DNA from: an uncultured Gammaproteobacteria bacterium
Lineage (GTDB): Bacteria; Patescibacteriota; Microgenomatia; Levybacterales; UBA12049
Assembly: GCA_964483115.1 (NCBI GenBank)
Contig: CAYZZF010000002.1
Coordinates: forward strand, 5,493-69,492
Length of the DNA stretch: 64,000 nt
Direction: 5' to 3'
The notes beneath the pieces were generated by a model. The model saw only the letters and a program-made list of their open reading frames with translations, was not told the DNA's origin and made no database searches. A program made the translations under genes and the position numbers. Below are positions 6,357 through 52,199 of the stretch, in pieces (within the stretch, counting starts at the first letter, position 1; each line of letters begins with the position of its first letter).

Positions 6357-8057
6357 TTACTTATCATTTTTCTTGAAAATCATAACCTTAGGATGGTCAT
6401 ATACGGTGAAAGATTCATCTGCGTTCTGATCATTTATGTCTATATTTGTAAAAGGAATTTTCGGGTATATGGCAAATTCGGCTACTTTTTCAAATCTCAA
6501 TTTTCCTGAAAAAAGATTTTTATAATATTCTGCTGTCTCTCTATAGCAAGGATTAGGAAATAATTTTTGACAATCAGTTAATTTTTGAAGCGGTACATAA
6601 AGTCTGTTGGAAGCAATAATAATATAATCTGTTTGTCTTAATTCAGTGTTTATTATAGACCATTTTTGAGGAGTGTCTTGGTTGTAAAGCGCAAGAGTTA
6701 AGATATTATAATTTTGTGCTCCAAAAAGAGGCAAACTATCATCCCAATGCTCTATTGCTATTGTTTTCCCTTGTGGTATATTTTCATTTATCCAATAGGA
6801 TGCCTGAACTCTAGTGTTTGGTTTTGTATAGATATTAAGGAAAGATAAAGTCCAAGTAAAAATACTACCAATAAATACCAATACTACCAATAAATACCAA
6901 TTACCAATCCTAATCTTTAGAAAAGTGGAAAGCTTATATATAAAAACTCCGGCAAAAACGGAAAGTAAAGGGTATAGAGGTAGCATATATCTCATAAAAC
7001 CTATTGCAAAACTTCCTGTTACTAAGAAATAAGTAAAGAAAAAGGCGATGATAATTATCAACTTATAATTGATTTTTTTAATTAATGAGACAGTAACATA
7101 GATTGTTCCTGAAAAAGCCAAAATTGCCAAAAAAGGTCCCTCTCCCCAAAGAAAAATATTTTTTAATTCATAAAAATAAGGAATTTTACCTACATATTGA
7201 AGCGTATAAGGAAACACAAAGGCATTGTGCGTCATTTGATATTGCTCAAGAGTCTGTTTCTGAAACTGCGGAAAATCTAGAATTGCATAGGGCTCAAGTA
7301 TTACAAAAGTTATAATAGTTCCAAAAATTATAATTAAACCTTCTGAGAAAAGACGTTTAAGAAAAATGGGTAGATGGGAAAACCAAATATGAGGCTTATG
7401 AGGTTGACGGAGGAAAATAAACAGAAAATCAATAGCAAGAGCAAGTCCAATAGAAATAATAAGAGGCAATGCGCTTACTTTAGTTGCTAAAGATAATCCA
7501 AAAAAAAGACCAATTAACAAAGCTTTCTTTTTGCTCGGCTTTTCATAAAAAAAAGATAGCATATATAAAGTTGCAAGAATAAAAAGAGAAAGCAAAGTAT
7601 CAACTGCATAAAAATGAGATGTTTGAAGGGGAAAAACACTTATTGCATAAAAAAAGGAAGAAAATAAGGCAACTTTTTGATTGAATAATTTTCTAGCAAG
7701 AGAAAAAATAACTAAAATAACTACTAAATCAGCAAAAACAGAAATAATCCGTCCAATAATATTAATTCCCGCATAGGTTGCAAAAGATGGATTTAAGAGA
7801 CCTGCAATACTTCCAAAAATTTTAAGAAGGTAAATAGGGAAACTTCCGTAAGCAAAAAAACGAGGATTCAGTGGGCTTTGAGGAGAAAAGAATTCGCTAG
7901 CATTTGAAGGGAAATGGAGCGGAAGAGCATACATTACTATTGCTCTTTCATCAGGATGAAGATGAAATCCTTGGTCCCAATTTAATCCATATATTCTTAA
8001 AAAGCTTGCGAGAATTAAAATCCCTAATAAAAGTAAATTTATACGTAAATTCTTCAT
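6357..8057 (-). CDS. GT-C fold membrane glycosyltransferase (PMT/ArnT-like, GT39/GT83)
   Basis: Polytopic protein. The first loop carries HLHPDER (the acidic DE motif), followed by FFAYGSFPIYLL. It is a paralog of the next gene. Confidence 0.7.
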   Translation of the reverse strand: MKNLRINLLLLGILILASFLRIYGLNWDQGFHLHPDERAIVMYALPLHFPSNASEFFSPQSPLNPRFFAYGSFPIYLLKIFGSIAGLLNPSFATYAGINIIGRIISVFADLVVILVIFSLARKLFNQKVALFSSFFYAISVFPLQTSHFYAVDTLLSLFILATLYMLSFFYEKPSKKKALLIGLFFGLSLATKVSALPLIISIGLALAIDFLFIFLRQPHKPHIWFSHLPIFLKRLFSEGLIIIFGTIITFVILEPYAILDFPQFQKQTLEQYQMTHNAFVFPYTLQYVGKIPYFYELKNIFLWGEGPFLAILAFSGTIYVTVSLIKKINYKLIIIIAFFFTYFLVTGSFAIGFMRYMLPLYPLLSVFAGVFIYKLSTFLKIRIGNWYLLVVLVFIGSIFTWTLSFLNIYTKPNTRVQASYWINENIPQGKTIAIEHWDDSLPLFGAQNYNILTLALYNQDTPQKWSIINTELRQTDYIIIASNRLYVPLQKLTDCQKLFPNPCYRETAEYYKNLFSGKLRFEKVAEFAIYPKIPFTNIDINDQNADESFTVYDHPKVMIFKKNDK

Positions 8058-30627: not shown

Positions 30628-30656
30628 TTGACAGAGATTAGCAGTCGTGTTATATT
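30628..30656 (+). promoter_or_regulatory. sigma70 consensus promoter of hrcA operon (TTGACA-17-TATATT)
   Basis: ttgaca at 30628-30633, a 17-nt spacer, and tatatt at 30651-30656. Confidence 0.7.
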
Positions 30657-30664
30657 ACTGCTAA
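30638..30664 (+). promoter_or_regulatory. CIRCE element (HrcA operator) overlapping the promoter
   Basis: TTAGCAGTC-N9-TACTGCTAA against the consensus TTAGCACTC-N9-GAGTGCTAA, with 8/9 inverted-repeat arms. It is followed by a second imperfect palindrome, aaccccgattaaatcgggatt. Confidence 0.75.
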
Positions 30665-34981: not shown

Positions 34982-35302
34982 ATGTTACTATCCGGAGTTT
35001 TAGGTGCTACTTCTTGCAGAGTGAATGAAAAACTAACCGATTTTGGGTGTATTCCTAATGACCCCGTTGCTTTTGTTGCCAAATTTTATGGTATTGGACT
35101 TGGATTAATTGGCGGTGTTGCGATACTTTTTATTATCTACGGAGGGTATATTATTCTTGCTTCCCAAGGTGATCCGGTAAAATTGAATACTGGTAAAAGT
35201 TATATATATTATGCGATTGCCGGACTTCTCCTGGCAATTTTTGGATTTGTTTTTGTTCAGGTGATTGTTGTTGACATATTGCACATACCTGGGTTTAAAT
35301 AA
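34982..35302 (+). CDS. small two-helix membrane protein (pilin-like; TrbC/VirB2-like topology)
   Basis: Two long hydrophobic helices (IGLGLIGGVAILFIIYGGYIIL and YIYYAIAGLLLAIFGFVFVQVIVV) separated by a short polar loop. Sits 6 bp upstream of the large membrane protein. Confidence 0.45.
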   Translation: MLLSGVLGATSCRVNEKLTDFGCIPNDPVAFVAKFYGIGLGLIGGVAILFIIYGGYIILASQGDPVKLNTGKSYIYYAIAGLLLAIFGFVFVQVIVVDILHIPGFK

Positions 35303-35308
35303 GAATAT

Positions 35309-37627
35309 ATGATAAAATTTCTGCCCATTCTGCGAAAGATTCTTTTTATTCTTATTGCATTTTTTGTAATAGGACTTTCGCTATTTAGTTTTACTGCAAT
35401 AGCAAAAGCACAGTCAGCCCCAACCCCAACTGGAGTACCTGAAGGTTCCTGGGTAAAAGATCAGGAGGTAACTTTTGTTGGTAAAACTGCTGCCCGGTCA
35501 GGAGAATTTTTAGATTGGACGCTAAAAAATTATGATTGGTCCTCTGTTTCGCCGGGGACAAGCAATCCACTTGCTACATTTTGGGCGACTATTAGAAATA
35601 TTGTTTATGCGTTTTTTATTCTTTTTGTTTTGGTAACAGCGTTTGTAATTATTGTTACTCGAGGAAGAAACATAACAGTGGCCAAATTCATACCCAAACT
35701 TATTATCATAATTCTTTTGGTAACATTTTCTTTTGCATTAGTTCAATTTATCTATCAAGTTACAGATGCAATACAAGGCTTTTTCTTAAAGAGCCCATCT
35801 CCTGATTGTACTTCCATTTGTCAAAAAGATCTCTTTTACTGGGGTTGGAATTATCAAGATTTTGAAGGTTTCCGTTTTATTGATCAAGCCGGTACTTATG
35901 ATGAATCAGCTTTTATAGCTCTTCTCCTTGTTAGACTTACCGCTCTTACCTATTATGTTATGGTTGGAATACTTATACTTAGAAAAATAATACTTTGGTT
36001 TTTTATTATAATATCGCCCATATTTCCTCTTCTTCTTTTGTATTCCCCAATTAGAAATACCGCCAAAATCTGGGTCGGAGAGTTTTTTCGCTGGCTTTTA
36101 TATGCGCCTATATTTGCAATTTTTTTGTCCGGGCTAGTTGTAATCTGGCGCTCACAGACGAACATACCCTTACAGTTTAATCTTACAAATACAAAAGTTA
36201 TCTACCCAACTGCCATAAACATTCTTCTTGGAGGGCCCGGACAAGTATTATCATACGTTTCTCCCGCTCAATCAAATAGCGTAAACAACATTGACACTTT
36301 CGCCCTTTATGTAGTTGCGCTTCTTATGCTTTGGGTCGTTATAATTTTGCCGTTTCTTCTTCTTCAGATTTTTCTTGATTATCTTAACAATTTTTCATTC
36401 GGAGAAAGTGCTATTTTAAAACAGCTCATAGCTGGAGGATCAGCGTTTGTAAATAGAGCTGGTCCTGGACTAACTCCTCCGCCCCCTACGATTCCTGCTG
36501 GTATAGCCCGTGCTCTACCATTTATTCCAGGTAAGGTTGAGATACCCGAGATAAGAGCAACAGAGGCTATTATCAATGCACAAGTCGCAGATATGAGAGG
36601 AATACAGGCAAGTTCAGATATACTTCGTCTAGCTAGTCTAAGCGTTCCTACCATGCGTGATATCGCAAAATATGAAACTGCTCTTTTATCCTCAGACATA
36701 GGTAAGCATCAAGATATAGCAAGATTTCACGAAACATTAGAGGGAATTGCCAATCCAAAAAGGGTGGCAACACCTGCGGAAAGACAAAATTATAATCTTA
36801 TGCAGGGAAGACTAAAACGGGAAGCCCAAAGAGGGGATCCTCTGGCATCCTCCATATTATCCGCTGCCAGTATCGTTTCTAAATCTTCTTTACAAAATAA
36901 ACAAGAGGAAAATGCAAGAGTAGGCAGTATCCTTTCCAGGATGAATAATCTTGCTAGCATAATTTCAACTGAGGAGAAAGAAAGACTAAACGCAATAAAA
37001 TCGTCTCTTATAGAAGCTGCGCAGAAAGGGGATCCTCTGGCAAACTCTATTCTATCTGCGATGAAAGAAGGCAAGACAGAAATAGATGAGAAACTTAAAG
37101 AACAGCTGCTTGAAGCAAAAGAAAGAGGAAGCGCGCTAGCTGCATCAATTTTAGAACAAGCTGGTGTTTCTGTTACTGTACAGACGTTCCCTGTTACAAA
37201 TCGTGTGCAAGCAGTAAGTATAGATGATTACGAAGCGGTAAAGAAAGTCTGGCAAGAAAATTATCAGAAACTTGAGCCGCCAAGAACTATTGAAGGAAAA
37301 CAAAAAAACAGGGAAGAATGGATTATAGGAGACATAGATAGGATTACAGAAACTATTAATCTTCTTACATCGGAAGATGTTCAGAATATCAAAAAGGGCA
37401 TGGAAGAGGTTTCTGCAATACTCCCCTTCCTTCTTATAGGAGGGTTTGCTCAGACAGAAGTTATTGCCTATCTTAAAGCAAAACTTGAAGCTGCAAAATC
37501 AGTTTCCGAAGAAATCAGCAAAAAAGAAGAGGAAGAAGAAACTATGCTTGGAAGAGAGAAGGCTAAAACAGATAAGCCAGCGGAGATGGAAATGAAAGAA
37601 GAAGTTAAAGAAAACCAAAATAATTGA
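35309..37627 (+). CDS. large polytopic membrane protein with signal peptide and C-terminal cytoplasmic repeat/acidic domain; unknown function
   Basis: Signal-like N-terminus and about 8-10 TM helices. The C-terminal region carries a triple GDPLAxSILSA repeat and an EEEEE tail. Confidence 0.55.
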   Translation: MIKFLPILRKILFILIAFFVIGLSLFSFTAIAKAQSAPTPTGVPEGSWVKDQEVTFVGKTAARSGEFLDWTLKNYDWSSVSPGTSNPLATFWATIRNIVYAFFILFVLVTAFVIIVTRGRNITVAKFIPKLIIIILLVTFSFALVQFIYQVTDAIQGFFLKSPSPDCTSICQKDLFYWGWNYQDFEGFRFIDQAGTYDESAFIALLLVRLTALTYYVMVGILILRKIILWFFIIISPIFPLLLLYSPIRNTAKIWVGEFFRWLLYAPIFAIFLSGLVVIWRSQTNIPLQFNLTNTKVIYPTAINILLGGPGQVLSYVSPAQSNSVNNIDTFALYVVALLMLWVVIILPFLLLQIFLDYLNNFSFGESAILKQLIAGGSAFVNRAGPGLTPPPPTIPAGIARALPFIPGKVEIPEIRATEAIINAQVADMRGIQASSDILRLASLSVPTMRDIAKYETALLSSDIGKHQDIARFHETLEGIANPKRVATPAERQNYNLMQGRLKREAQRGDPLASSILSAASIVSKSSLQNKQEENARVGSILSRMNNLASIISTEEKERLNAIKSSLIEAAQKGDPLANSILSAMKEGKTEIDEKLKEQLLEAKERGSALAASILEQAGVSVTVQTFPVTNRVQAVSIDDYEAVKKVWQENYQKLEPPRTIEGKQKNREEWIIGDIDRITETINLLTSEDVQNIKKGMEEVSAILPFLLIGGFAQTEVIAYLKAKLEAAKSVSEEISKKEEEEETMLGREKAKTDKPAEMEMKEEVKENQNN

Positions 37628-37687: not shown

Positions 37688-40243
37688 ATGTTTGGAAATT
37701 TATTCGGTTCAAGAAATTTTGAAGTAAAAACCGGGACTACTCAAGTTCCGCAGCAGGTGCCGGCATCTCCTTCTGTGCCGTCAGTCCAATCTGTCCAGCC
37801 TCTCCAATCTAATGTTGTCGGATCTGCCATGAACCCATCTTTAAGGCAGGATTTATCAGTGTTATCTCATTTAGACGCTAGAGCATCACAAGTATTACAA
37901 GCTGCTAAAAATGAAACAAAAAGAATTCAGCAATCACTTATTGAACCAGAGCAAATTCTCTACGGACTTTTATTTGACGGCGAAGTTTTCAAACTTATTT
38001 CACAATTTTCTTCAGACCCTACAAAGATCGTTAAGGAAATTGAAAGTAAAGAATCAGTCGGAAGTTTTATAGGAGAATCAACTCTGTCAGATACTTCAAA
38101 AAAGATCTTTGAAGATGCATATTCGATGGTAAAAAAAAGAGGAGTTGAGTTTATAAGTCCTGAAGATATTCTATTATCTCTCTTTTCACAAAGTGTAGGA
38201 GTCTCAAATTATCTTCAGTCAGAGGGAATTAAAAAAGAAGACATTGAAGAAAAACTTTCAAAGACATCAAGCTATGTCTATGGTAAAAAATCTGCACTTG
38301 AAAGTTTTGGTGTTGATTTGACAGAACAGGCGAGAAACGGGGAACTTGATCCAATTGCAGGACGAGATAAGGAAATTGAAAGACTTGTCCACATACTTCT
38401 TCGCAGAACCAAAAATAACCCTATTGTTATAGGAGAGGCAGGAGTTGGAAAAACAGCCATTGTTGAAGGATTAGCTCAAAATATCATAAAGGGCACTGCC
38501 CCCCGCGATCTTCTAGAAAAAAAAATTATCCAGATTGATTTATCCTCTCTTGTTGCGGGGGCATCGCACCGGGGGGAATTTGAGGAAAGACTCAGAAGCG
38601 TTATAAAAGAAACCCAAGCTGCAAGCGGAGCAGTAATATTATTCATTGATGAGATCCATACTTTGATTGGAGCAGGAGATACAGAAGGGGCTTTGGATGC
38701 ATCAAATATTATAAAGCCTTTTTTGGCAAGAGGACAACTCCAGATTATTGGAACAACAACGACTGCTGAATATAGAAAATATTTTGAAAAGGATAAAGCC
38801 TTTGAGAGAAGGTTTCAATCGGTTTTGGTTGCCGAACCCGATGAGAAAACAGCCGTTGAAATGCTTTTGGTTCTTAAAACAAAATACGAGAATTTTCATA
38901 AAGTTGTTCTGCCACAAGAGACTCTTGAGGCATCCGTTGCCCTATCAAAACGCTATATTGGCGAGCGGTATTTACCCGATAAGGCAGTTGATCTCCTGGA
39001 TGAGGCAGCAGCAGAAGTAAGGCTTTTGCAAAACGAAGGGAAGAGATCTGATAATACTGTTTCAAAAAGTGATATAGAAAAAGTTGTTTCAGGTTGGACA
39101 GGAATTCCTATAACAAAACTTACAGAAAATGAAAGCGAGAGACTTTTGCATCTTGAAGACACAATTCACAAGCGCTTAATCGATCAGGAAATGGCAGTTA
39201 AAACTGTTGCAGAAGCTGTAAGGCGAGGAAGGATCGGATTGTCAAGTGCCCAAAGGCCTATTGCATCATTTATATTCTTGGGACCAACCGGGGTTGGAAA
39301 AACAGAACTTGCAAAAACACTCGCTTCGATTCTCTTTGGCAAAGAGGAGGCAATGGTGAGACTTGATATGAGTGAGTATATGGAAAAACATGAGGTCGCA
39401 AAACTTATTGGCGCCCCTCCCGGTTATGTTGGTTATGAAGAAGGGGGTCAGTTAACAGAGGCAGTCAGGATAAAACCTTATTCTATAGTTCTTTTGGATG
39501 AGATAGAAAAAGCGCACCCGGATGTCTTTAATATTTTACTCCAGCTTCTTGAAGATGGAAGACTTACCGATAATAAGGGCAATACAGTATCTTTTAAGAA
39601 TACGATTATTATTGCAACATCAAATATCGGTAGTATGCTAATACAGCAGCAGTTGGAAACAGACAAAAAGGGAGGTTCGGAATTGCAGGAAAAAAGTGAT
39701 GCGAAAAAATTTGAGGAGCTTTCAAAGACCCTCCTTGCAGAACTTAGAAAATTCTTTAGACCCGAACTTTTGAACCGTTTTGATGGAGTTGTGATTTTTG
39801 AACCTTTATCTTTGAAAAACATGCTTTCTGTTGCCCAGCTTGGTATAGATGCAACTAAAAAATTGCTTAATCAACAGGGTATTGATCTTGATATTACACA
39901 AGAAGGGCTTTCTCAACTTGCTCGTGAAGGCTATGACCCGGTTTATGGAGCAAGACCGCTAAGGCGTCTTATTCAAAGCTCTATAGAAAATCCAATCGCT
40001 GTGCTTCTTATAAATAAAACTTTTATAGCAGGGGACAAGATTTTGATTGATTTTGATAAGATAAAAGAAGAGTTCATTTTTACAAAAGTTGCTCTGTCCC
40101 CAACCCAGCCAGGAACAACACAAGGCGAAACCCTGAATCCAGTTTCGGCAAATGACGGAAACTTTCCACCAGCACAACCTTTACAGCCGGAGGCACCACC
40201 AATACAGGGGATTGATGACACTCAAATGCAACCACAAAATTGA
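37688..40243 (+). CDS. clpB: ClpB/ClpC-family double-ring AAA+ chaperone lacking the M-domain, with disordered N- and C-terminal tails
   Basis: Clp_N repeats. D1 has GRDKEIERLVHILLRRTKNNPIVIGEAGVGKTA and Walker B FIDEIH. D2 has LGPTGVGKTELAK, LLDEIEKAHPDVFNILLQLLEDGRLTD and GARPLRRLIQ. Only about 9 residues separate DLLDEAAAEV from the D2 linker. There is no LGF ClpP loop. Confidence 0.85.
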   Translation: MFGNLFGSRNFEVKTGTTQVPQQVPASPSVPSVQSVQPLQSNVVGSAMNPSLRQDLSVLSHLDARASQVLQAAKNETKRIQQSLIEPEQILYGLLFDGEVFKLISQFSSDPTKIVKEIESKESVGSFIGESTLSDTSKKIFEDAYSMVKKRGVEFISPEDILLSLFSQSVGVSNYLQSEGIKKEDIEEKLSKTSSYVYGKKSALESFGVDLTEQARNGELDPIAGRDKEIERLVHILLRRTKNNPIVIGEAGVGKTAIVEGLAQNIIKGTAPRDLLEKKIIQIDLSSLVAGASHRGEFEERLRSVIKETQAASGAVILFIDEIHTLIGAGDTEGALDASNIIKPFLARGQLQIIGTTTTAEYRKYFEKDKAFERRFQSVLVAEPDEKTAVEMLLVLKTKYENFHKVVLPQETLEASVALSKRYIGERYLPDKAVDLLDEAAAEVRLLQNEGKRSDNTVSKSDIEKVVSGWTGIPITKLTENESERLLHLEDTIHKRLIDQEMAVKTVAEAVRRGRIGLSSAQRPIASFIFLGPTGVGKTELAKTLASILFGKEEAMVRLDMSEYMEKHEVAKLIGAPPGYVGYEEGGQLTEAVRIKPYSIVLLDEIEKAHPDVFNILLQLLEDGRLTDNKGNTVSFKNTIIIATSNIGSMLIQQQLETDKKGGSELQEKSDAKKFEELSKTLLAELRKFFRPELLNRFDGVVIFEPLSLKNMLSVAQLGIDATKKLLNQQGIDLDITQEGLSQLAREGYDPVYGARPLRRLIQSSIENPIAVLLINKTFIAGDKILIDFDKIKEEFIFTKVALSPTQPGTTQGETLNPVSANDGNFPPAQPLQPEAPPIQGIDDTQMQPQN

Positions 40244-40246
40244 TGT

Positions 40247-41845
40247 ATGAGCGATGGAAACATAAACCTCCTCCAGACAATTCCGGTTCAACACTTCAAT
40301 CCCCAAGACAAAAAGACCGCAATTTTTGGAACAAAAAAATTTATTTTCTCAGTTCTTTTTATAACTATTTTTGCAATCGCCTCTTTTATTTTCTTGGTAT
40401 CTTCAAAAAAACAATCTATGATATCACCCTCGGCTAATCCTTATCCCGCAAAATCTTTTAAAATGTGGGAGATTACATTTGTTTACGATACTGAAAAACA
40501 AACGCTCTCAGTTAAAAGTGCAATTATTAAGACTGGAACAGCAACTGCTTCCAATCTGGGACTGTCGCCATATAAACTTCTAGTTTTTAATAAAAATAAC
40601 AACGTTATTTTCAATACAGACATTCATATAACAGAAGGAATTCTCTATGATATTGATGGCCCGCCCAATGCTACTTCATCACCAATTATTGTTCCTTCTA
40701 CGCCCAAAACATTTGAAAACGTTGTTTATATCCCGTTATTTCAGAGTGCAAAAAAGATAGAGGTAACAAAAAATGGTATTAAGATATTGGAATTTACTCT
40801 CCCTAAAGTTACAGGATTTAATTTAATTAATCAAACATTTGCCGTAAATGGACCGGCTTGTACAACCAATCTAAAGATTGTATTTATTAGCGACGGATAC
40901 AACAGTGAAAGCCAGTTTTATAGCGATGCCCAAGAAGTGGTTAAAAAGTATATTTCTCTTTCTCCCTATTCTGAAAAGCCAGATATATTTGATTTTAAAA
41001 TGGTTTACAATACTATTCCTCTTGGTTGTGCTAAGAATGGTGTTCTATATACTGAGTGCTTGAGTTCTTTACAGACAATAATAATGGAAAAAAATATAAT
41101 TTTTGGAAAATATCCAGAACTTCAGGGAATTGATGGCGATCATTTAAAATTTATAGTTCTAGCAGATGCGCAACCTGAGCTATTTGGTGGATTGTTATAT
41201 ATGGGAGCTATGGAAGGCGTAGGCGGAGTTTATGGAGTCTTTGAAACGCGAGACCGCGATAAATTACCGACTGTTGCCTCCCACGAAGTATTAGGACATG
41301 CAGTAGGCTATCTATATGATAGATATGTGTATAGCTCAGGCCCAAATTCTCAGGAAAGAAGTGTTTTTCCAGAGAGCAACTGTAGTAGAAGTCAACAAGG
41401 AGCGTCCTTTTGGCAAAGCATTAATGGAGGAGGAGCATATCAAGGTTGTACATCTGAGTATTTGTTTGGACCTTACCCGCGTGATTGTGGGACAGGAGGA
41501 ACACGTGAGTCTATAATGAGTCTGGTAAGTTGTGGTTCAAGTGAATTTGATCCAGTCGAGCAAGCATGGATAAGAACTAATGTTATCTCAAAATACCAGT
41601 CTTGCAGTGGAAGCAGTCCATCCGCTTCTTTTCCGCCGACCTCGACTTCAATCCCCACTTTAGTTCCCAGGCAACCAACATCTATACAAGAGCCAGTTGT
41701 TACCCCAACCAGCACTTCCAGTGTTCCAACCACAGTTCCTACTTCAGCATCATTAACTACTTATGATTGCTATTCTGATCCAAACTGTCGTAATTCTGGC
41801 CAAGGGAATATTCAGCTATGCCCTCTTGTCTGCACTCCCAAATAA
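40247..41845 (+). CDS. membrane-anchored extracytoplasmic Cys-rich protein with HExxGH zinc-metallopeptidase motif (M64-like)
   Basis: N-in TM anchor; HEVLGHAVGYLYDRY; many Cys; C-terminal PT-rich region. Confidence 0.5.
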   Translation: MSDGNINLLQTIPVQHFNPQDKKTAIFGTKKFIFSVLFITIFAIASFIFLVSSKKQSMISPSANPYPAKSFKMWEITFVYDTEKQTLSVKSAIIKTGTATASNLGLSPYKLLVFNKNNNVIFNTDIHITEGILYDIDGPPNATSSPIIVPSTPKTFENVVYIPLFQSAKKIEVTKNGIKILEFTLPKVTGFNLINQTFAVNGPACTTNLKIVFISDGYNSESQFYSDAQEVVKKYISLSPYSEKPDIFDFKMVYNTIPLGCAKNGVLYTECLSSLQTIIMEKNIIFGKYPELQGIDGDHLKFIVLADAQPELFGGLLYMGAMEGVGGVYGVFETRDRDKLPTVASHEVLGHAVGYLYDRYVYSSGPNSQERSVFPESNCSRSQQGASFWQSINGGGAYQGCTSEYLFGPYPRDCGTGGTRESIMSLVSCGSSEFDPVEQAWIRTNVISKYQSCSGSSPSASFPPTSTSIPTLVPRQPTSIQEPVVTPTSTSSVPTTVPTSASLTTYDCYSDPNCRNSGQGNIQLCPLVCTPK

Positions 41846-41883
41846 TAAATTGCAATTTAGACAAAAACCTCTTACACTAAAAA

Positions 41884-42197
41884 TGATGGCTTGGGATTTT
41901 TTAAAATTTTGGTTCTTCGAAGCTCCAAGAGAAATATTAAATTTCTTTACCTCCCTTAACAAATCTTTTCTGGAATTAGTTTCTCTTCAACTTTTGGTAA
42001 AAACATATTTTAAAGCCTGGAAAAATGAGTACAGGGAGGGACTGGTTGGATTCTCGATTGCAATGGGAATATTTATAAAAACCCTTGTTATTTTTGCCGA
42101 TATAATTTTGTTTTCCATTCTTTTGTCAATTGAAATAATATTATTTTCTGCGTTTATTTTTTGGCCGATTGGAACAGTCATTTTGCTTTTTATTTAA
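41884..42197 (+). CDS. small membrane protein, unknown
   Basis: Two TM helices. The ATG at 41884 is preferred because it avoids the overlap with the upstream gene. Confidence 0.35.
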
Positions 42198-42198
42198 T

Positions 42199-44580
42199 AT
42201 GATCGGATACGCAAGAATTTATAATTTTTACACAACAAATATTATAAGATTATTAAGATTTGTTATTTTTATTTTTCTTCTATGGAGTACCTATCAATCT
42301 GTTTCTAATAGTTTTTTCCTTTCTGCCTCCTCTCGCATATCAATTTTTCTTCTATCCGTCTTCTTAATACTTGAGGTTTTTTTTCGCTTTAAAATCTCAA
42401 GATTGACTCCCAGAGTTTCGATTTCAGAAAATGAAGGCAAAAATATCTACACATCCTTTACTTTTAAAAGTTTATATGTTTTTTTAGGCAAAACAACATC
42501 AATAATAAAATTACTTCTTAAAGAAAAATCCAGCCTTTTTATTCTTGAAAAATCAGACATCAGGCAAAACGAGGTGTCACTTATCGATATTTCAAAAGAA
42601 GACTTAGGTGCGTATTCCCTTGAGGTTTCAAAAAATCTGAAGGGAAAATTTGTAACTACAATGGATATTTTAGTTTCCTATCTTCTATTAACTGAAGACA
42701 AAACCAAACTCTTGTTTAATAAAAATCTTAAAAAAGAGGAGCTAATGCATATTCTTTACTGGGCTCGCTTAAGATTTTCTGATGAAGAAAATCCAAAACC
42801 TTTTATGATAAATTTTTGGGGGGAAGGAATTGGAGAAGGCATGGTTTCGGGTTGGACTATAGAAACAAAAAAATACATGGTTGATAAAACATCGGAGATT
42901 TTAAGAAAAAGGACAACTCTCTTTGGGAAAGAGTCTGAATATAGACAGATCTTAGAAGCGTTATATCAGCAAAAAAGTGTTATTCTAGTTGGGGAGCAAG
43001 GGGTTGGTAAAGAAGAAATTATTGAAAGCCTTGCTTTTGAAAGTTTTACCGGCAGTTTGAGAGGAAGCCTTTATCATCAGAGGTTTTTTGAGCTTTTGAT
43101 TGATGCGCTTATTGCAGGATCTCAAAATCAAGGAGAACTTGAATCCCGTCTTGATGCAATTATCGCAGAGCTTGCCCACTCTGGCAATATAATTGTTTAT
43201 ATCCCATCTTTTGAAAATATCTTGGGATCTTCCTCTTTCCATATCGACCTTTCAGGAGTCCTTGCTCCGTATCTTGAAAGAGGAGTAATTCGCATAATTG
43301 CAACTGTTAGCCTTGGAGCATATAAAAAATTTGTTGAGGCGCGAAAAACACTGATGAATGCGTTCCAAGTTGTAAAACTTGAAGAGCCTGACAAGGATTT
43401 GACTCTACAGATGTTATTTAGGAAAACTCTAGATATTGAGGGAATTTACAGCGTTGATTTGACTTACAAATCTGTTATCGCGGCAGCTACGTACGGAAAA
43501 CAATATTTACCAGGAAGTTATTTGCCTGGCGCGGCTTTTGAGCTTCTTAAAGACACCGCCAATATGGTATTTCTTAGAGGTAAAAAAATTGTTGAAGAGG
43601 AGGATGTTATTGAAAAAGTAAAGACCCAAACAAAAATTGCAATTGGAAAGCCAAAAGGAAAAGAGAAAGAATTACTGCTCCATCTTGAGAATGAGATGCA
43701 TAAGCGAATTATTGATCAGGAAGAAGCTGTATCAGAGGTCTCAGAAGCTATGCGGCGGCTTCGAACAGGCATTACCACTCTTAATAAACCTATTTCATTT
43801 TTATTTTTGGGACCTACAGGGGTTGGAAAAACAGAAACAGCAAAAACTCTAGCCGCGCTTTACTTTGGAGGAGAAAACAAAATGATAAGGCTTGATATGA
43901 GTGAATATTCGGGGGATGACGCAGCCAGAAGACTATTGGGATCTTTACCGGGTGAAGAAGAAGAAAGAGGAGAGCTTACAGATAAAGTCTATGATAATCC
44001 GTTTTCATTAATTCTTCTTGATGAATTTGAGAAGGCAAATATTAATGTACTTAATTTATTCTTGCAGGTTTTGGATGACGGGCGACTAACTGATAATAAA
44101 GGAAGAACCGTATCTTTTGTCAATGCTATTATTATTGCAACCTCAAATGCCGCATCAGAATTTATTAGAGAGGAGATCGGAAAAGGTGCTACTGTAAATA
44201 AAAAATTTCAAGAAAAACTTCTCGAGTTTTTACAAACAAAAGGAATTTTTAAGCCAGAGCTTCTAAATAGGTTTGACGGAATAATTGTTTTTAAACCATT
44301 AGGGCAAGGAGAGGTGGTTCAAGTTATAAAGCTTTTGCTTTCAGAATTATCTAGAAAAATGCAAGAGCAGGATGTTGCTATCATTTTCGATGACAAAATA
44401 ATAGAAAAAATTATTAACGAAGGTTTTGATGAACAGTTTGGCGCCCGCCCCCTGCGCCGATATATTCAGGACAACATCGAAGATTTAATTGCCCAAAAAA
44501 TCTTAAAGGACGAGATAAAACGCGGGGACAAAATTTCCGTCTCAACTGATGGAAATCAATTTCTAATTTCTAAATCCTAA
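42199..44580 (+). CDS. membrane-anchored Clp-like AAA+ ATPase with degenerate D1 and intact D2
   Basis: N-terminal 2 TM (LLRFVIFIFLLW, ISIFLLSVFLILEVFF). D1 Walker A is degenerate (GEQGVGKEE, no T/S after the Lys), and D1 Walker B is replaced (YIPSFENIL). D2 is canonical: LGPTGVGKTETAK, LLDEFEKA, GARPLRRYIQ. Confidence 0.75.
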   Translation: MIGYARIYNFYTTNIIRLLRFVIFIFLLWSTYQSVSNSFFLSASSRISIFLLSVFLILEVFFRFKISRLTPRVSISENEGKNIYTSFTFKSLYVFLGKTTSIIKLLLKEKSSLFILEKSDIRQNEVSLIDISKEDLGAYSLEVSKNLKGKFVTTMDILVSYLLLTEDKTKLLFNKNLKKEELMHILYWARLRFSDEENPKPFMINFWGEGIGEGMVSGWTIETKKYMVDKTSEILRKRTTLFGKESEYRQILEALYQQKSVILVGEQGVGKEEIIESLAFESFTGSLRGSLYHQRFFELLIDALIAGSQNQGELESRLDAIIAELAHSGNIIVYIPSFENILGSSSFHIDLSGVLAPYLERGVIRIIATVSLGAYKKFVEARKTLMNAFQVVKLEEPDKDLTLQMLFRKTLDIEGIYSVDLTYKSVIAAATYGKQYLPGSYLPGAAFELLKDTANMVFLRGKKIVEEEDVIEKVKTQTKIAIGKPKGKEKELLLHLENEMHKRIIDQEEAVSEVSEAMRRLRTGITTLNKPISFLFLGPTGVGKTETAKTLAALYFGGENKMIRLDMSEYSGDDAARRLLGSLPGEEEERGELTDKVYDNPFSLILLDEFEKANINVLNLFLQVLDDGRLTDNKGRTVSFVNAIIIATSNAASEFIREEIGKGATVNKKFQEKLLEFLQTKGIFKPELLNRFDGIIVFKPLGQGEVVQVIKLLLSELSRKMQEQDVAIIFDDKIIEKIINEGFDEQFGARPLRRYIQDNIEDLIAQKILKDEIKRGDKISVSTDGNQFLISKS

Positions 44581-51131: not shown

Positions 51132-52199
51132 ATGGATTCTTTTACTTCTTTGGAAAGCCAGATACAAAAGCTTGAGGAAAAAGTTAAATCAATAGAGCTT
51201 CCTTCGGATTTGCTGGAAAAAATAGAAGGGATGATAAATTTGCTTCGAGCAAGTCTTAAAAGTGGAAATGCCTCATTTATAAATTATGAAAGTGTTTCAG
51301 CCTATGTTAATTGGATTGTCTCTTTGCCTTTTGCTAAAGAAACTAAAGATATTCTAGATCTTCATCGGGCAAAAGAGATTTTGGATAAAAATCATTACGG
51401 ACTTTCGGGTGTCAAAAATAGAATTCTGGAGTATTTATCGGCAATTATTTTAAGTATGCAAAACAACACATCAGGAGGAGTGATACGAGCACCGATCCTT
51501 TGCTTAATTGGTCTTGTTGGAACTGGTAAGACAACACTTGCTTACTCTATTGCAGAGGCTCTGGGACGGAGGTTTGAGAGAATACCTTTTGGAGGAATGG
51601 GAGATGCAAGGGCACTACGCGGTCAGTCTCGCGCAATGTCTGATGCAGAACCAGGAGCTATCATTAAAAAATTAGTTAATGCCCAAAGTAAAAATGCTGT
51701 TATTCTTCTTGATGAACTAGATAGAGTGGCAGAGTCTGCTAGAGCTGACATTATGGGAGTTTTGGTGGAGCTTTTGGACCCCGAACAAAATAAAGCATTT
51801 ACAGACCATTATATTGACTATCCATTTGATTTGTCTCATGTTTTGTTTGTTACAACAGCAAATAATTCAACTAACATCTCAACAGCAGTATTAGACAGAC
51901 TTGAGATAATACAAATGCCTTCTTATTCAGATGAGGAGAAAACGTCCATTGCAAGAAGTTATCTATTCCCGAAAATTCGTACTCAGACAGGATTATCAGA
52001 ACAACAAATACTTATTGATGATGCTGTTTGGCCTTTGGTAATAAGACCTTTAGGTTTTGACTCGGGAATAAGAAGCCTTGAGAGGACAATTGAGGGGATT
52101 TGCAGAAAAACCGCAAGGTTTATTGTCGAAGGAAAAGTGCCCCAGGGAGCATCTGTCCACATAACAAGCGAGAATTTTAAACAATTTTTACTAACCTAA
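51132..52199 (+). CDS. Lon-like AAA+ ATPase module without N-terminal LON domain and without S16 protease domain
   Basis: HYGLSGVKNRILEYL; LCLIGLVGTGKTTLAYSIAEALGRRF; LLDELDR; VELLDPEQNKAFTDHYIDYPFDLSHVLFVTTANN; SGIRSLERTIEGICRK. The ORF ends before any protease-domain sequence. Confidence 0.8.
   Translation: MDSFTSLESQIQKLEEKVKSIELPSDLLEKIEGMINLLRASLKSGNASFINYESVSAYVNWIVSLPFAKETKDILDLHRAKEILDKNHYGLSGVKNRILEYLSAIILSMQNNTSGGVIRAPILCLIGLVGTGKTTLAYSIAEALGRRFERIPFGGMGDARALRGQSRAMSDAEPGAIIKKLVNAQSKNAVILLDELDRVAESARADIMGVLVELLDPEQNKAFTDHYIDYPFDLSHVLFVTTANNSTNISTAVLDRLEIIQMPSYSDEEKTSIARSYLFPKIRTQTGLSEQQILIDDAVWPLVIRPLGFDSGIRSLERTIEGICRKTARFIVEGKVPQGASVHITSENFKQFLLT

Follow-up and report, generated by a model that had tools for sequence, protein, structure and literature searches.

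In a 64-kb stretch of contig CAYZZF010000002.1 (hereafter the window), the gene at 42199..44580 encodes a predicted membrane-anchored paralog of the Clp/Hsp100 proteins (hereafter the ATPase), and the gene directly upstream, at 41883..42197, encodes a small membrane protein (hereafter the partner). In the best-supported reading, which we regard as probable, the two form a membrane-embedded, ClpP-independent, two-component AAA+ remodeler driven by the second ATPase module, D2. Fold and ATPase chemistry are those of known Clp/Hsp100 proteins; what sets the pair apart is its architecture, the partner and the state of the pore loops. The architecture is apparently undescribed and confined to the tiny, uncultivated Patescibacteria, and a full-text literature search turned up no paper on an Hsp100 anchored in a bacterial membrane.

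The open reading frame (ORF) of the ATPase starts at the ATG at 42199 of the + strand, on which all its features described below are located, and its stop codon ends at 44580, giving a product of 793 residues. This ORF and all the motifs quoted in the original prediction, a note made earlier on this DNA, are present in the translation. An alternative start, the TTG at 42169, was rejected: the orthologs begin at M-x-x-YA[KR]IY, corresponding to the ATG at 42199, and the TTG lies inside the partner gene. In Pfam, D2 matches AAA_2 (1e-45) and is accompanied by a ClpB_D2-small match (1e-21), the first module, D1, gives a weak AAA_lid_9 match alone, and the PF00004 (AAA) match is confined to D2 (residues 535-655), leaving D1 unmatched. 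The NCBIfam models for ClpB, ClpA, ClpV, ClpK and ClpG all match the protein, all far under their cut-offs (447 bits versus 1232 for ClpB, 374 versus 993 for ClpA and 335 versus 885 for ClpV). Using the AlphaFold2 model, the best fold matches found by Foldseek in the PDB are ClpC, ClpC1 and ClpB, with E-values from 1e-53 to 1e-41 and 28-36 % identity, in keeping with the Clp/Hsp100 paralogy put forward originally. Pfam and Foldseek thus both recover the class I Clp/Hsp100 arrangement of tandem AAA+ modules followed by a ClpB_D2-small domain.

Orthologs form at least 120 clusters in Levybacteria/Microgenomates and are 55-69 % identical; where they have public names, these are Candidatus Levybacteria or Patescibacteria 'ATP-dependent Clp protease ATP-binding subunit'. 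The motif counts below are from 120 orthologs aligned with the ClpC-like protein encoded at 37688..40243 of the window. Their mean identity to the window ATPase is 70 % for D2, 55 % for D1, 54 % for the N-domain and 46 % for the anchor. Judged by the identity maintained across more than 100 orthologs, the higher conservation of D2 than of D1 and the invariance of family-specific residues, the ATPase is under purifying selection.

D1 (residues 241-490; 42919..43668) appears as a pseudo-ATPase module in the ortholog alignment. Its Walker A motif reads GEQGVGKEE (residues 265-273; 42991-43017), the remnant of its Walker B motif IIVYIPSFEN (residues 331-340; 43189-43218) and its former Arg-finger site TLMNAFQ (43348-43368), aligned with ERRFQ of the neighbouring ClpC-like protein. 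At the position of the Walker B Asp, 108 orthologs have Pro, ten Ser, two Glu and none Asp (n = 120); at that of the catalytic Glu most have Asn or Ser, and both residues of the Arg-finger pair are replaced by non-basic ones in all 120. The GxxGxG of Walker A is kept throughout (120/120), with Lys (86), Arg (33) or Val (1) at the Lys position, and the residue after it is Thr or Ser in 53/120. In its Walker B, its Arg fingers and its Walker A Thr/Ser, D1 therefore lacks what makes the D1 of class I proteins catalytically competent, and on motif evidence hydrolysis by D1 is excluded. Because GxxGxG[K/R] is kept, D1 may still bind phosphate or nucleotide. The degenerate D1 of the original prediction is thus upheld by alignment with a ClpC D1, although its author had allowed that a canonical Walker A in orthologs would imply a local error. 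Some orthologs do carry GKT or GKS, but an error does not follow: as Walker B and the Arg fingers have been lost family-wide, the GKEE of the window is one state of a drifting Walker A. Moreover, contigs from two independent sequencing runs (SRR5161805 and SRR5161795) encode an identical ATPase protein, which, together with the same pattern in the 120 orthologs, excludes a sequencing error.

D2 and the D2-small domain (residues 491-793; 43669..44577), delimited by Pfam and the alignment, contain all the motifs of an active ATPase module: Walker A GPTGVGKTE (residues 538-546; 43810-43836), Walker B LILLDEFEKA (residues 604-613; 44008-44037), sensor-1 IIATSN (44131-44148), Arg finger LLNRFD (44260-44277) and sensor-2 GARPLRR (residues 748-754; 44440-44460). 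In the 120 orthologs, GPTGVGKT, LLDEFEKA, ATSN, LLNRFD and GARP are near-invariant, and an intact D2, as originally described, is confirmed for every catalytic motif.

The pore loops of both modules differ from those of class I proteins, which are aromatic (K-Y-R in D1 and G-Y-V-G in D2). The D1 loop of the window ATPase is AGSQNQGELESR (43114-43149) and the D2 loop, acidic and aromatic-free, is LPGEEEERGELTD (43945-43983); an aromatic residue is found in 4/120 orthologs for D1 and in 6/120 for D2. In D2, PGEEEERGE takes the place of GYVG, the loop of ClpC being PPGYVGYEEGG, and the orthologs average 3.9 Asp/Glu and 0.6 Lys/Arg in the 11.5 residues of this loop. None of the aligned distant relatives has an aromatic at the GYVG position. 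In Clp/HSP100 proteins, aromatic pore loops are conserved and critical for processive unfolding (PMC5425593). The ClpP-docking tripeptide [LIVM]G[FL] is absent between sensor-1 and the Arg finger in all the orthologs (0/120), where the segment, of 39 residues on average, is of ClpB-like length. With only 96 residues between the D1 sensor-2 (LPGAAFE) and the D2 Walker A, the ATPase has no room for an M-domain, and its model contains no long helical insertion. The known lengths of ClpA, ClpB and ClpC served as the reference for this M-domain comparison. The term unfoldase, used in the original prediction, is made doubtful by the lack of aromatics in both pore loops, of the docking tripeptide and of an M-domain.

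At the N-terminus, an amphipathic helix with the conserved sequence YA[KR]IYxFY (residues 2-12; 42202..42234; ortholog alignment and AlphaFold2) is followed by two putative transmembrane (TM) helices, identified by hydropathy, conservation and AlphaFold2. TM helix 1 (residues 14-37; 42238..42309) has the nearly invariant R20 at its cytoplasmic end, and TM helix 2 (residues 43-66; 42325..42396) contains the nearly invariant intramembrane E59 and is followed by FxFKIxR. Kyte-Doolittle values averaged over 19 residues exceed 1.6 at residues 10-28 and 40-58. Two hydrophobic segments are present in 76/121 aligned sequences, most of the remainder being N-terminally truncated gene calls; the orthologs sharing the N-terminal anchor, for which the earlier note had proposed to search, are thereby found. 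The AlphaFold2 model, calculated from a 99-sequence alignment, has a mean predicted local distance difference test score (pLDDT) of 83.9 and a predicted template modelling score (pTM) of 0.74; it comprises the amphipathic helix 2-12, the helices 14-37 and 43-66 (pLDDT about 76-91), a helical domain (83-197), D1 and D2. The mean number of Lys plus Arg is 1.5 in the N-tail, 1.9 at the cytoplasmic end of TM helix 1, 0.8 in the loop between the helices and 3.4 after TM helix 2. These counts fit an N-in/C-in hairpin, which would place the ATPase in the cytoplasm. Hydropathy, charge counts, conservation and the model thus support the two-helix anchor with a positive-inside pattern and cytoplasmic ATPase that had been suggested.

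The same note held that the N-domain had been replaced by the TM helices, which is not the case: residues about 80-197 (42436..42789) fold as a diverged Clp_N-type N-domain. A separate model of residues 68-240 has a pLDDT above 90 across the helical domain, and its top ~45 Foldseek matches in the PDB are exclusively Clp/Hsp100 N-domains (E-values 0.03-1, probability up to 1.0, TM-scores 0.4-0.58), including the N-terminal domains of ClpC, ClpC1, Hsp104, ClpB and ClpA, plus ClpC2. A sequence-profile search of the N-terminal 240 residues against the PDB gave no Clp_N and no other significant match, and Pfam finds no Clp_N in the ATPase; the double-repeat Clp_N domain of class I proteins is therefore recognisable on the fold level only. 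As the N-domain is kept, though diverged, the anchor is an addition that precedes it. In the stretch joining the N-domain to D1, the alignment contains a Trp/Gly-rich motif, FWGEGIGExWVxGWTIETKKYxxDxT (residues 206-231; 42814..42891), with invariant G208, G210, E213, G218, W219, E222, K225 and D229. It is the most conserved family-specific element. The remotest relatives keep it as GGIGxDWAxG[YW]TxxLxx[FY]xxDIT, canonical ClpC has no counterpart and it is modelled at low confidence (pLDDT 39-57). It is a candidate membrane interface, partner contact or substrate site.

The partner gene (41883..42197, + strand), which the original prediction had passed over, is defined by its ORF, its homologs, synteny and hhalign comparisons. 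It encodes a membrane protein of 104 residues of no known family, and its TAA stop codon ends 1 nt ahead of the ATG of the ATPase. The protein has an N-terminal FLKFWFxEAP motif, a central FSLxLLxKTxFxPWKNEYRxG motif and a C-terminal part of about 50 hydrophobic residues with conserved K66, D73, E84 and W-P. Its 225 homologs are all annotated as hypothetical and all from Patescibacteria, and many share a contig with the ATPase; searches of Pfam, NCBIfam and the PDB gave no relative or consistent family. We analysed synteny in 50 species-representative genomes, selected with an N-terminal profile, from Levybacteria, Gottesmanbacteria and Microgenomates; in all 48 loci with upstream sequence, the partner lies directly upstream of the ATPase. 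The spacing is −4 to +5 nt in 36 loci and 6-130 nt in six, and in the other six the genes are fused in-frame. Such fusions are known from several lineages; in them, only one TM helix, equivalent to TM helix 2, separates the partner from the N-domain, and the C-terminus of the partner and the loop between TM helices 1 and 2 would therefore lie on the same, outer side. Five distant relatives each have a partner homolog of 109-131 residues immediately upstream (5/5; hhalign probability 88-99.8 %), with all remaining neighbours differing, and three distant proteins carry a partner-like domain fused to their N-terminus (hhalign 96.8 %, E-value 2e-10). Adjacency and fusion persisting among differing neighbours indicate that the conserved unit is a two-gene module.

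An exhaustive search of 1.84 billion proteins with the N-terminal 240-residue profile retrieved only 140 clusters (at 50 % identity), so the anchor and N-region are clade-restricted. A profile of the distant N-terminal regions gave zero matches at E ≤ 1e-5; this profile is weak, and hydrophobic words swamp the word index, so that the empty result does not speak for absence. Remoter full-length matches, of 815-890 residues, include proteins of Berkelbacteria and other Patescibacteria. They, too, have a hydrophobic N-terminus and GGIGxDWAxG[YW]T, have lost the D1 Arg fingers and lack GYVG in D2. Several of them keep the D1 Walker motifs (GPAGVGKT and ILFIDEVQ in P0330; GPTGVGKT and ILFIDEIQ in P0343), and the decay of D1 is therefore secondary, a later event within the Levybacteria lineage, whereas anchor, partner and pore loops without aromatics are ancestral.

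Comparison with known systems places the ATPase closest in parts, but not as a whole, to several of them. With ClpC, ClpA and ClpB it shares the Clp_N-type N-domain, the tandem AAA+ modules, the D2-small domain and the canonical D2 motifs; it differs from them by the N-terminal TM hairpin, the obligate membrane partner, a D1 without Walker B Asp/Glu or Arg fingers and non-aromatic pore loops, and it has neither the M-domain of ClpB and ClpC nor the docking loop of ClpA and ClpC. FtsH, usually linked to the quality control of membrane proteins, also has two N-terminal TM helices and a hexameric AAA+ ring under the membrane. However, its single AAA module is of the classic clade, has an aromatic pore loop and is fused to an M41 metalloprotease, none of which applies to the ATPase: Pfam finds no Peptidase_M41, and its AAA modules are Clp-type. 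In NSF (D2) and PEX1/PEX6 (D1), one ring retains a P-loop scaffold without hydrolysis and has mainly an assembly role, the other ring being the motor. The D1 of the ATPase resembles these in keeping GxxGxG[K/R] without Walker B and Arg finger, whereas NSF and PEX1/PEX6 are classic-clade eukaryotic, soluble proteins with aromatic pore loops in the active ring. Torsins, of the eukaryotic endoplasmic reticulum and nuclear envelope, are Clp/Hsp100-related AAA+ proteins with an N-terminal hydrophobic membrane tether, transmembrane partners (LAP1 and LULL1) and no aromatic pore loops, the last being a defining oddity of theirs (PMC5425593). They consist of a single, Clp-D2-like AAA+ module in the lumen of the endoplasmic reticulum and lack an Arg finger, which is supplied by the AAA-like luminal domain of the cofactor (PMC5425593). 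The membrane tether, the transmembrane partner and the lack of pore-loop aromatics make the ATPase Torsin-like by analogy only. It has two modules and its own Arg finger in D2 (LLNRFD), the proteins of the partner family are small (104-131 residues) and have no AAA-like domain; in these respects the ATPase departs from the Torsin family.

In the mechanism that we propose, the partner, a small polytopic membrane protein, and the ATPase most likely act as one membrane-embedded complex, of which the partner would be an integral subunit. From its N-terminus, the ATPase consists, by sequence and structure prediction, of a cytoplasmic amphipathic helix, an N-in/C-in TM hairpin, the Clp_N domain, the Trp/Gly-rich linker, a dead D1 and an intact D2. 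It would form a Clp-like hexamer beneath the membrane, with D1 as a structural, possibly nucleotide-binding pseudo-ATPase ring and D2 as the only motor. Intramembrane charges (R20 and E59 of the ATPase; K66, D73 and E84 of the partner) may join the two proteins. Independently of ClpP, the complex would remodel or extract membrane-associated clients without canonical Tyr-driven threading, and its acidic D2 loop may engage Lys/Arg-rich cytoplasmic juxtamembrane segments of membrane proteins. Several points weigh against this mechanism. We infer membrane insertion, hexamer formation, ATPase activity and partner binding alike, and for the TM helices the basis is hydropathy, conservation, charge bias and AlphaFold2, not a dedicated predictor. 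The fusions require the partner to have its C-terminus on the outer side, which does not sit easily with a pair of TM helices following its Lys/Arg-rich loop. The missing aromatic pore loops speak against threading and do not reveal what replaces it; the tblastn search for ClpP had the 64-kb window as its scope, not the rest of the genome. Finally, only some of the Levybacteria, amounting to about half of the loci, have the neighbourhood with ClpC and peptidase genes.

Alternatively, and closer to the original prediction, the ATPase could thread its substrates canonically, as an unfoldase or dislocase sitting at the membrane; following the logic of FtsH or Msp1, it would pull polypeptides through its pore with D2 as single active ring, perhaps feeding a protease. 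The Clp/Hsp100 fold, a D2 whose ATPase site is intact and a D2-small domain for oligomerisation would all suit such a machine, as would the membrane anchor and the proteostasis genes nearby. We nevertheless consider it rather unlikely, as an acidic loop replaces GYVG family-wide and so few orthologs have a pore-loop aromatic in either module; the docking tripeptide is found in none, no ClpP is encoded in the window and Pfam detects no protease domain fused to the ATPase. It is hardly credible that the gene has no function and is merely a paralog of the ClpC-like gene nearby in the course of decay. The D1 motifs are indeed degenerate and variable among orthologs, and a canonical paralog is located 2 kb upstream, but at least 50 species-level genomes and 120 protein clusters have the ORF intact and at full length, without frameshifts or stops seen in orthologs. 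The essentially invariant D2 catalytic motifs, the invariant residues in anchor, N-domain and linker, and a partner that is strictly conserved and repeatedly fused also contradict decay. A bolder proposal can be made, tentatively: the pair may be an unrecognised two-component membrane machine of Patescibacteria that has given up Tyr threading, either a Torsin-cofactor-like remodeler or a new kind of dislocase with acidic loops. In the Torsin-like variant, it would remodel membrane or envelope assemblies without translocation; in the dislocase variant, it would use its acidic pore loops to grip clients by their Lys/Arg-rich, 'positive-inside' segments.

A further alternative, which we judge improbable, is that the module serves the export, anchoring or maturation of secreted peptidases encoded upstream. 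In the window, a secreted peptidase gene (40247..41845) ends in a four-Cys tail (41762..41842), and similarly tagged peptidases are found in L003 (5629..7596), L004 (4190..5794 and 6462..7628), L005 (5693..7594) and 11 of the loci L006-L055. They belong to unrelated families (M64-like, subtilisin S8 and M28 aminopeptidase, one with a cohesin domain), and all end in a Pro/Thr-rich linker and a tail of ~27 residues, Y[ND]Cx(4-6)Cx(6-8)[IL]QxCxLxCxP[KNQ]-stop. No NCBIfam model matches this tail; it seems to be a C-terminal tag, so far undescribed, with which Levybacteria sort or anchor proteins. The tagged genes are immediately upstream of the partner in the window, in L003, L004 and L005 and in 11/50 species loci; every tagged ORF in about 0.8 Mb of fetched loci adjoins the partner gene on its upstream side, and the sole tagged ORF of the 64-kb window is the one beside it. 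On the other hand, a tagged gene is lacking within 8 kb in the majority of the 50 loci, and the genes called beside the five distant relatives do not include one. As few loci have a tagged gene, the association may be synteny by descent within one subclade. Moreover, the partner does not resemble a channel or a sortase-like enzyme, and the four-Cys tail has no TM segment.

Hsp100/Clp proteins are known from textbooks as soluble, double-ring, Tyr-loop threading machines, and among the AAA+ machines that bacteria use for quality control, FtsH alone, as far as we know, is widely recognised as membrane-integrated. The present family departs from the Hsp100 picture in being predicted to be membrane-integral, in having a dedicated membrane subunit and in lacking pore-loop aromatics despite a perfect D2; it would be a natural experiment in what such motors do without threading or a second active ring. 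The stepwise decay of D1, lineage by lineage, should be useful for understanding the origin of pseudo-ATPase rings. The family is confined to the Candidate Phyla Radiation (CPR), whose members combine minimal genomes with a life attached to other cells and an envelope about which little is known; a membrane module that is driven by ATP and conserved there is a concrete, expressible target for study. As the mechanism of Torsins is still unsettled, the parallel with them could yield a simpler bacterial model.

The window has a GC content of about 35 % and gene content typical of a CPR core region, with GroEL, LepA, MurJ, HrcA, DnaK and DnaJ as well as NusA, IF2, PNPase, RNase J and FtsK. In the window and three orthologous loci, the gene order is a small protein resembling a type IV secretion system (T4SS) pilin, a large membrane protein, the ClpC-like protein, one or more secreted peptidases, the partner, the ATPase, NusA and IF2. 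When ORFs of at least 150 residues are taken as genes, all those between 30798 and about 56900 belong to the + strand, and as far as the ATPase the spacers between them are short. The hrcA-dnaK-dnaJ genes are further upstream, on the same strand as the ATPase, and 134 nt upstream of hrcA there is a CIRCE-like inverted repeat, TTAGCAGTC-N9-TACTGCTAA (30638..30664), a single degenerate site with three mismatches to the consensus (0.02 expected by chance). About half of the 50 loci have a ClpC-like gene no more than 8 kb upstream. The hrcA-dnaK-dnaJ/clpC context fits a proteostasis role without proving one; since the neighbourhood of ClpC and peptidase genes is found in only part of the Levybacteria, it says little on function.

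The ClpC-like protein of the window (37688..40243; ORF and Pfam), 2 kb upstream of the ATPase, is itself unusual: it has neither an M-domain, its D1 sensor-2 and D2 Walker A being 103 residues apart, nor a [LIV]G[FL] docking loop. Its D1 pore loop has His for Tyr (SHRGEFEER), and it carries an N-terminal extension of ~60 residues and a Pro/Gln-rich C-terminal tail. From these motifs, neither Hsp100 of the window organism looks capable of docking ClpP. Between dnaJ and clpC, the window encodes a pilin-like conjugal-transfer protein of 106 residues (34982..35302; NF045849, E-value 4e-6; PF18895, T4SS_pilin, in the L003 ortholog) and a membrane protein of 772 residues with an acidic, Lys-rich tail (35309..37627). 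In L003 and L005, too, the gene of the large membrane protein precedes that of the ClpC-like protein. Downstream of the ATPase, a protein of 355 residues (51132..52199) combines an AAA module with a Lon-type lid (PF22667) and has no Lon protease domain; it occupies the same position in L002 and L003.

In the distant locus L057 (1..3595), a rhomboid protein, a Band_7/SPFH protein and a peptidyl-prolyl isomerase are encoded at most 6 kb upstream of the family member, and in both L058 (1318..2223) and L059 (1986..3260) an S11 D-Ala-D-Ala carboxypeptidase is encoded at most 3 kb upstream. These neighbours, from single loci only, hint at membrane or envelope quality control. The GenBank records of L006, L011, L018, L021-L024, L026 and L034, and likewise those of L038, L040-L042, L048, L050 and L053, all TPA_asm metagenome-assembled genomes, are titled 'uncultured Gammaproteobacteria bacterium'. 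For records with a Levybacteria-type module these titles look wrong, as gene content and similarity point to Patescibacteria.

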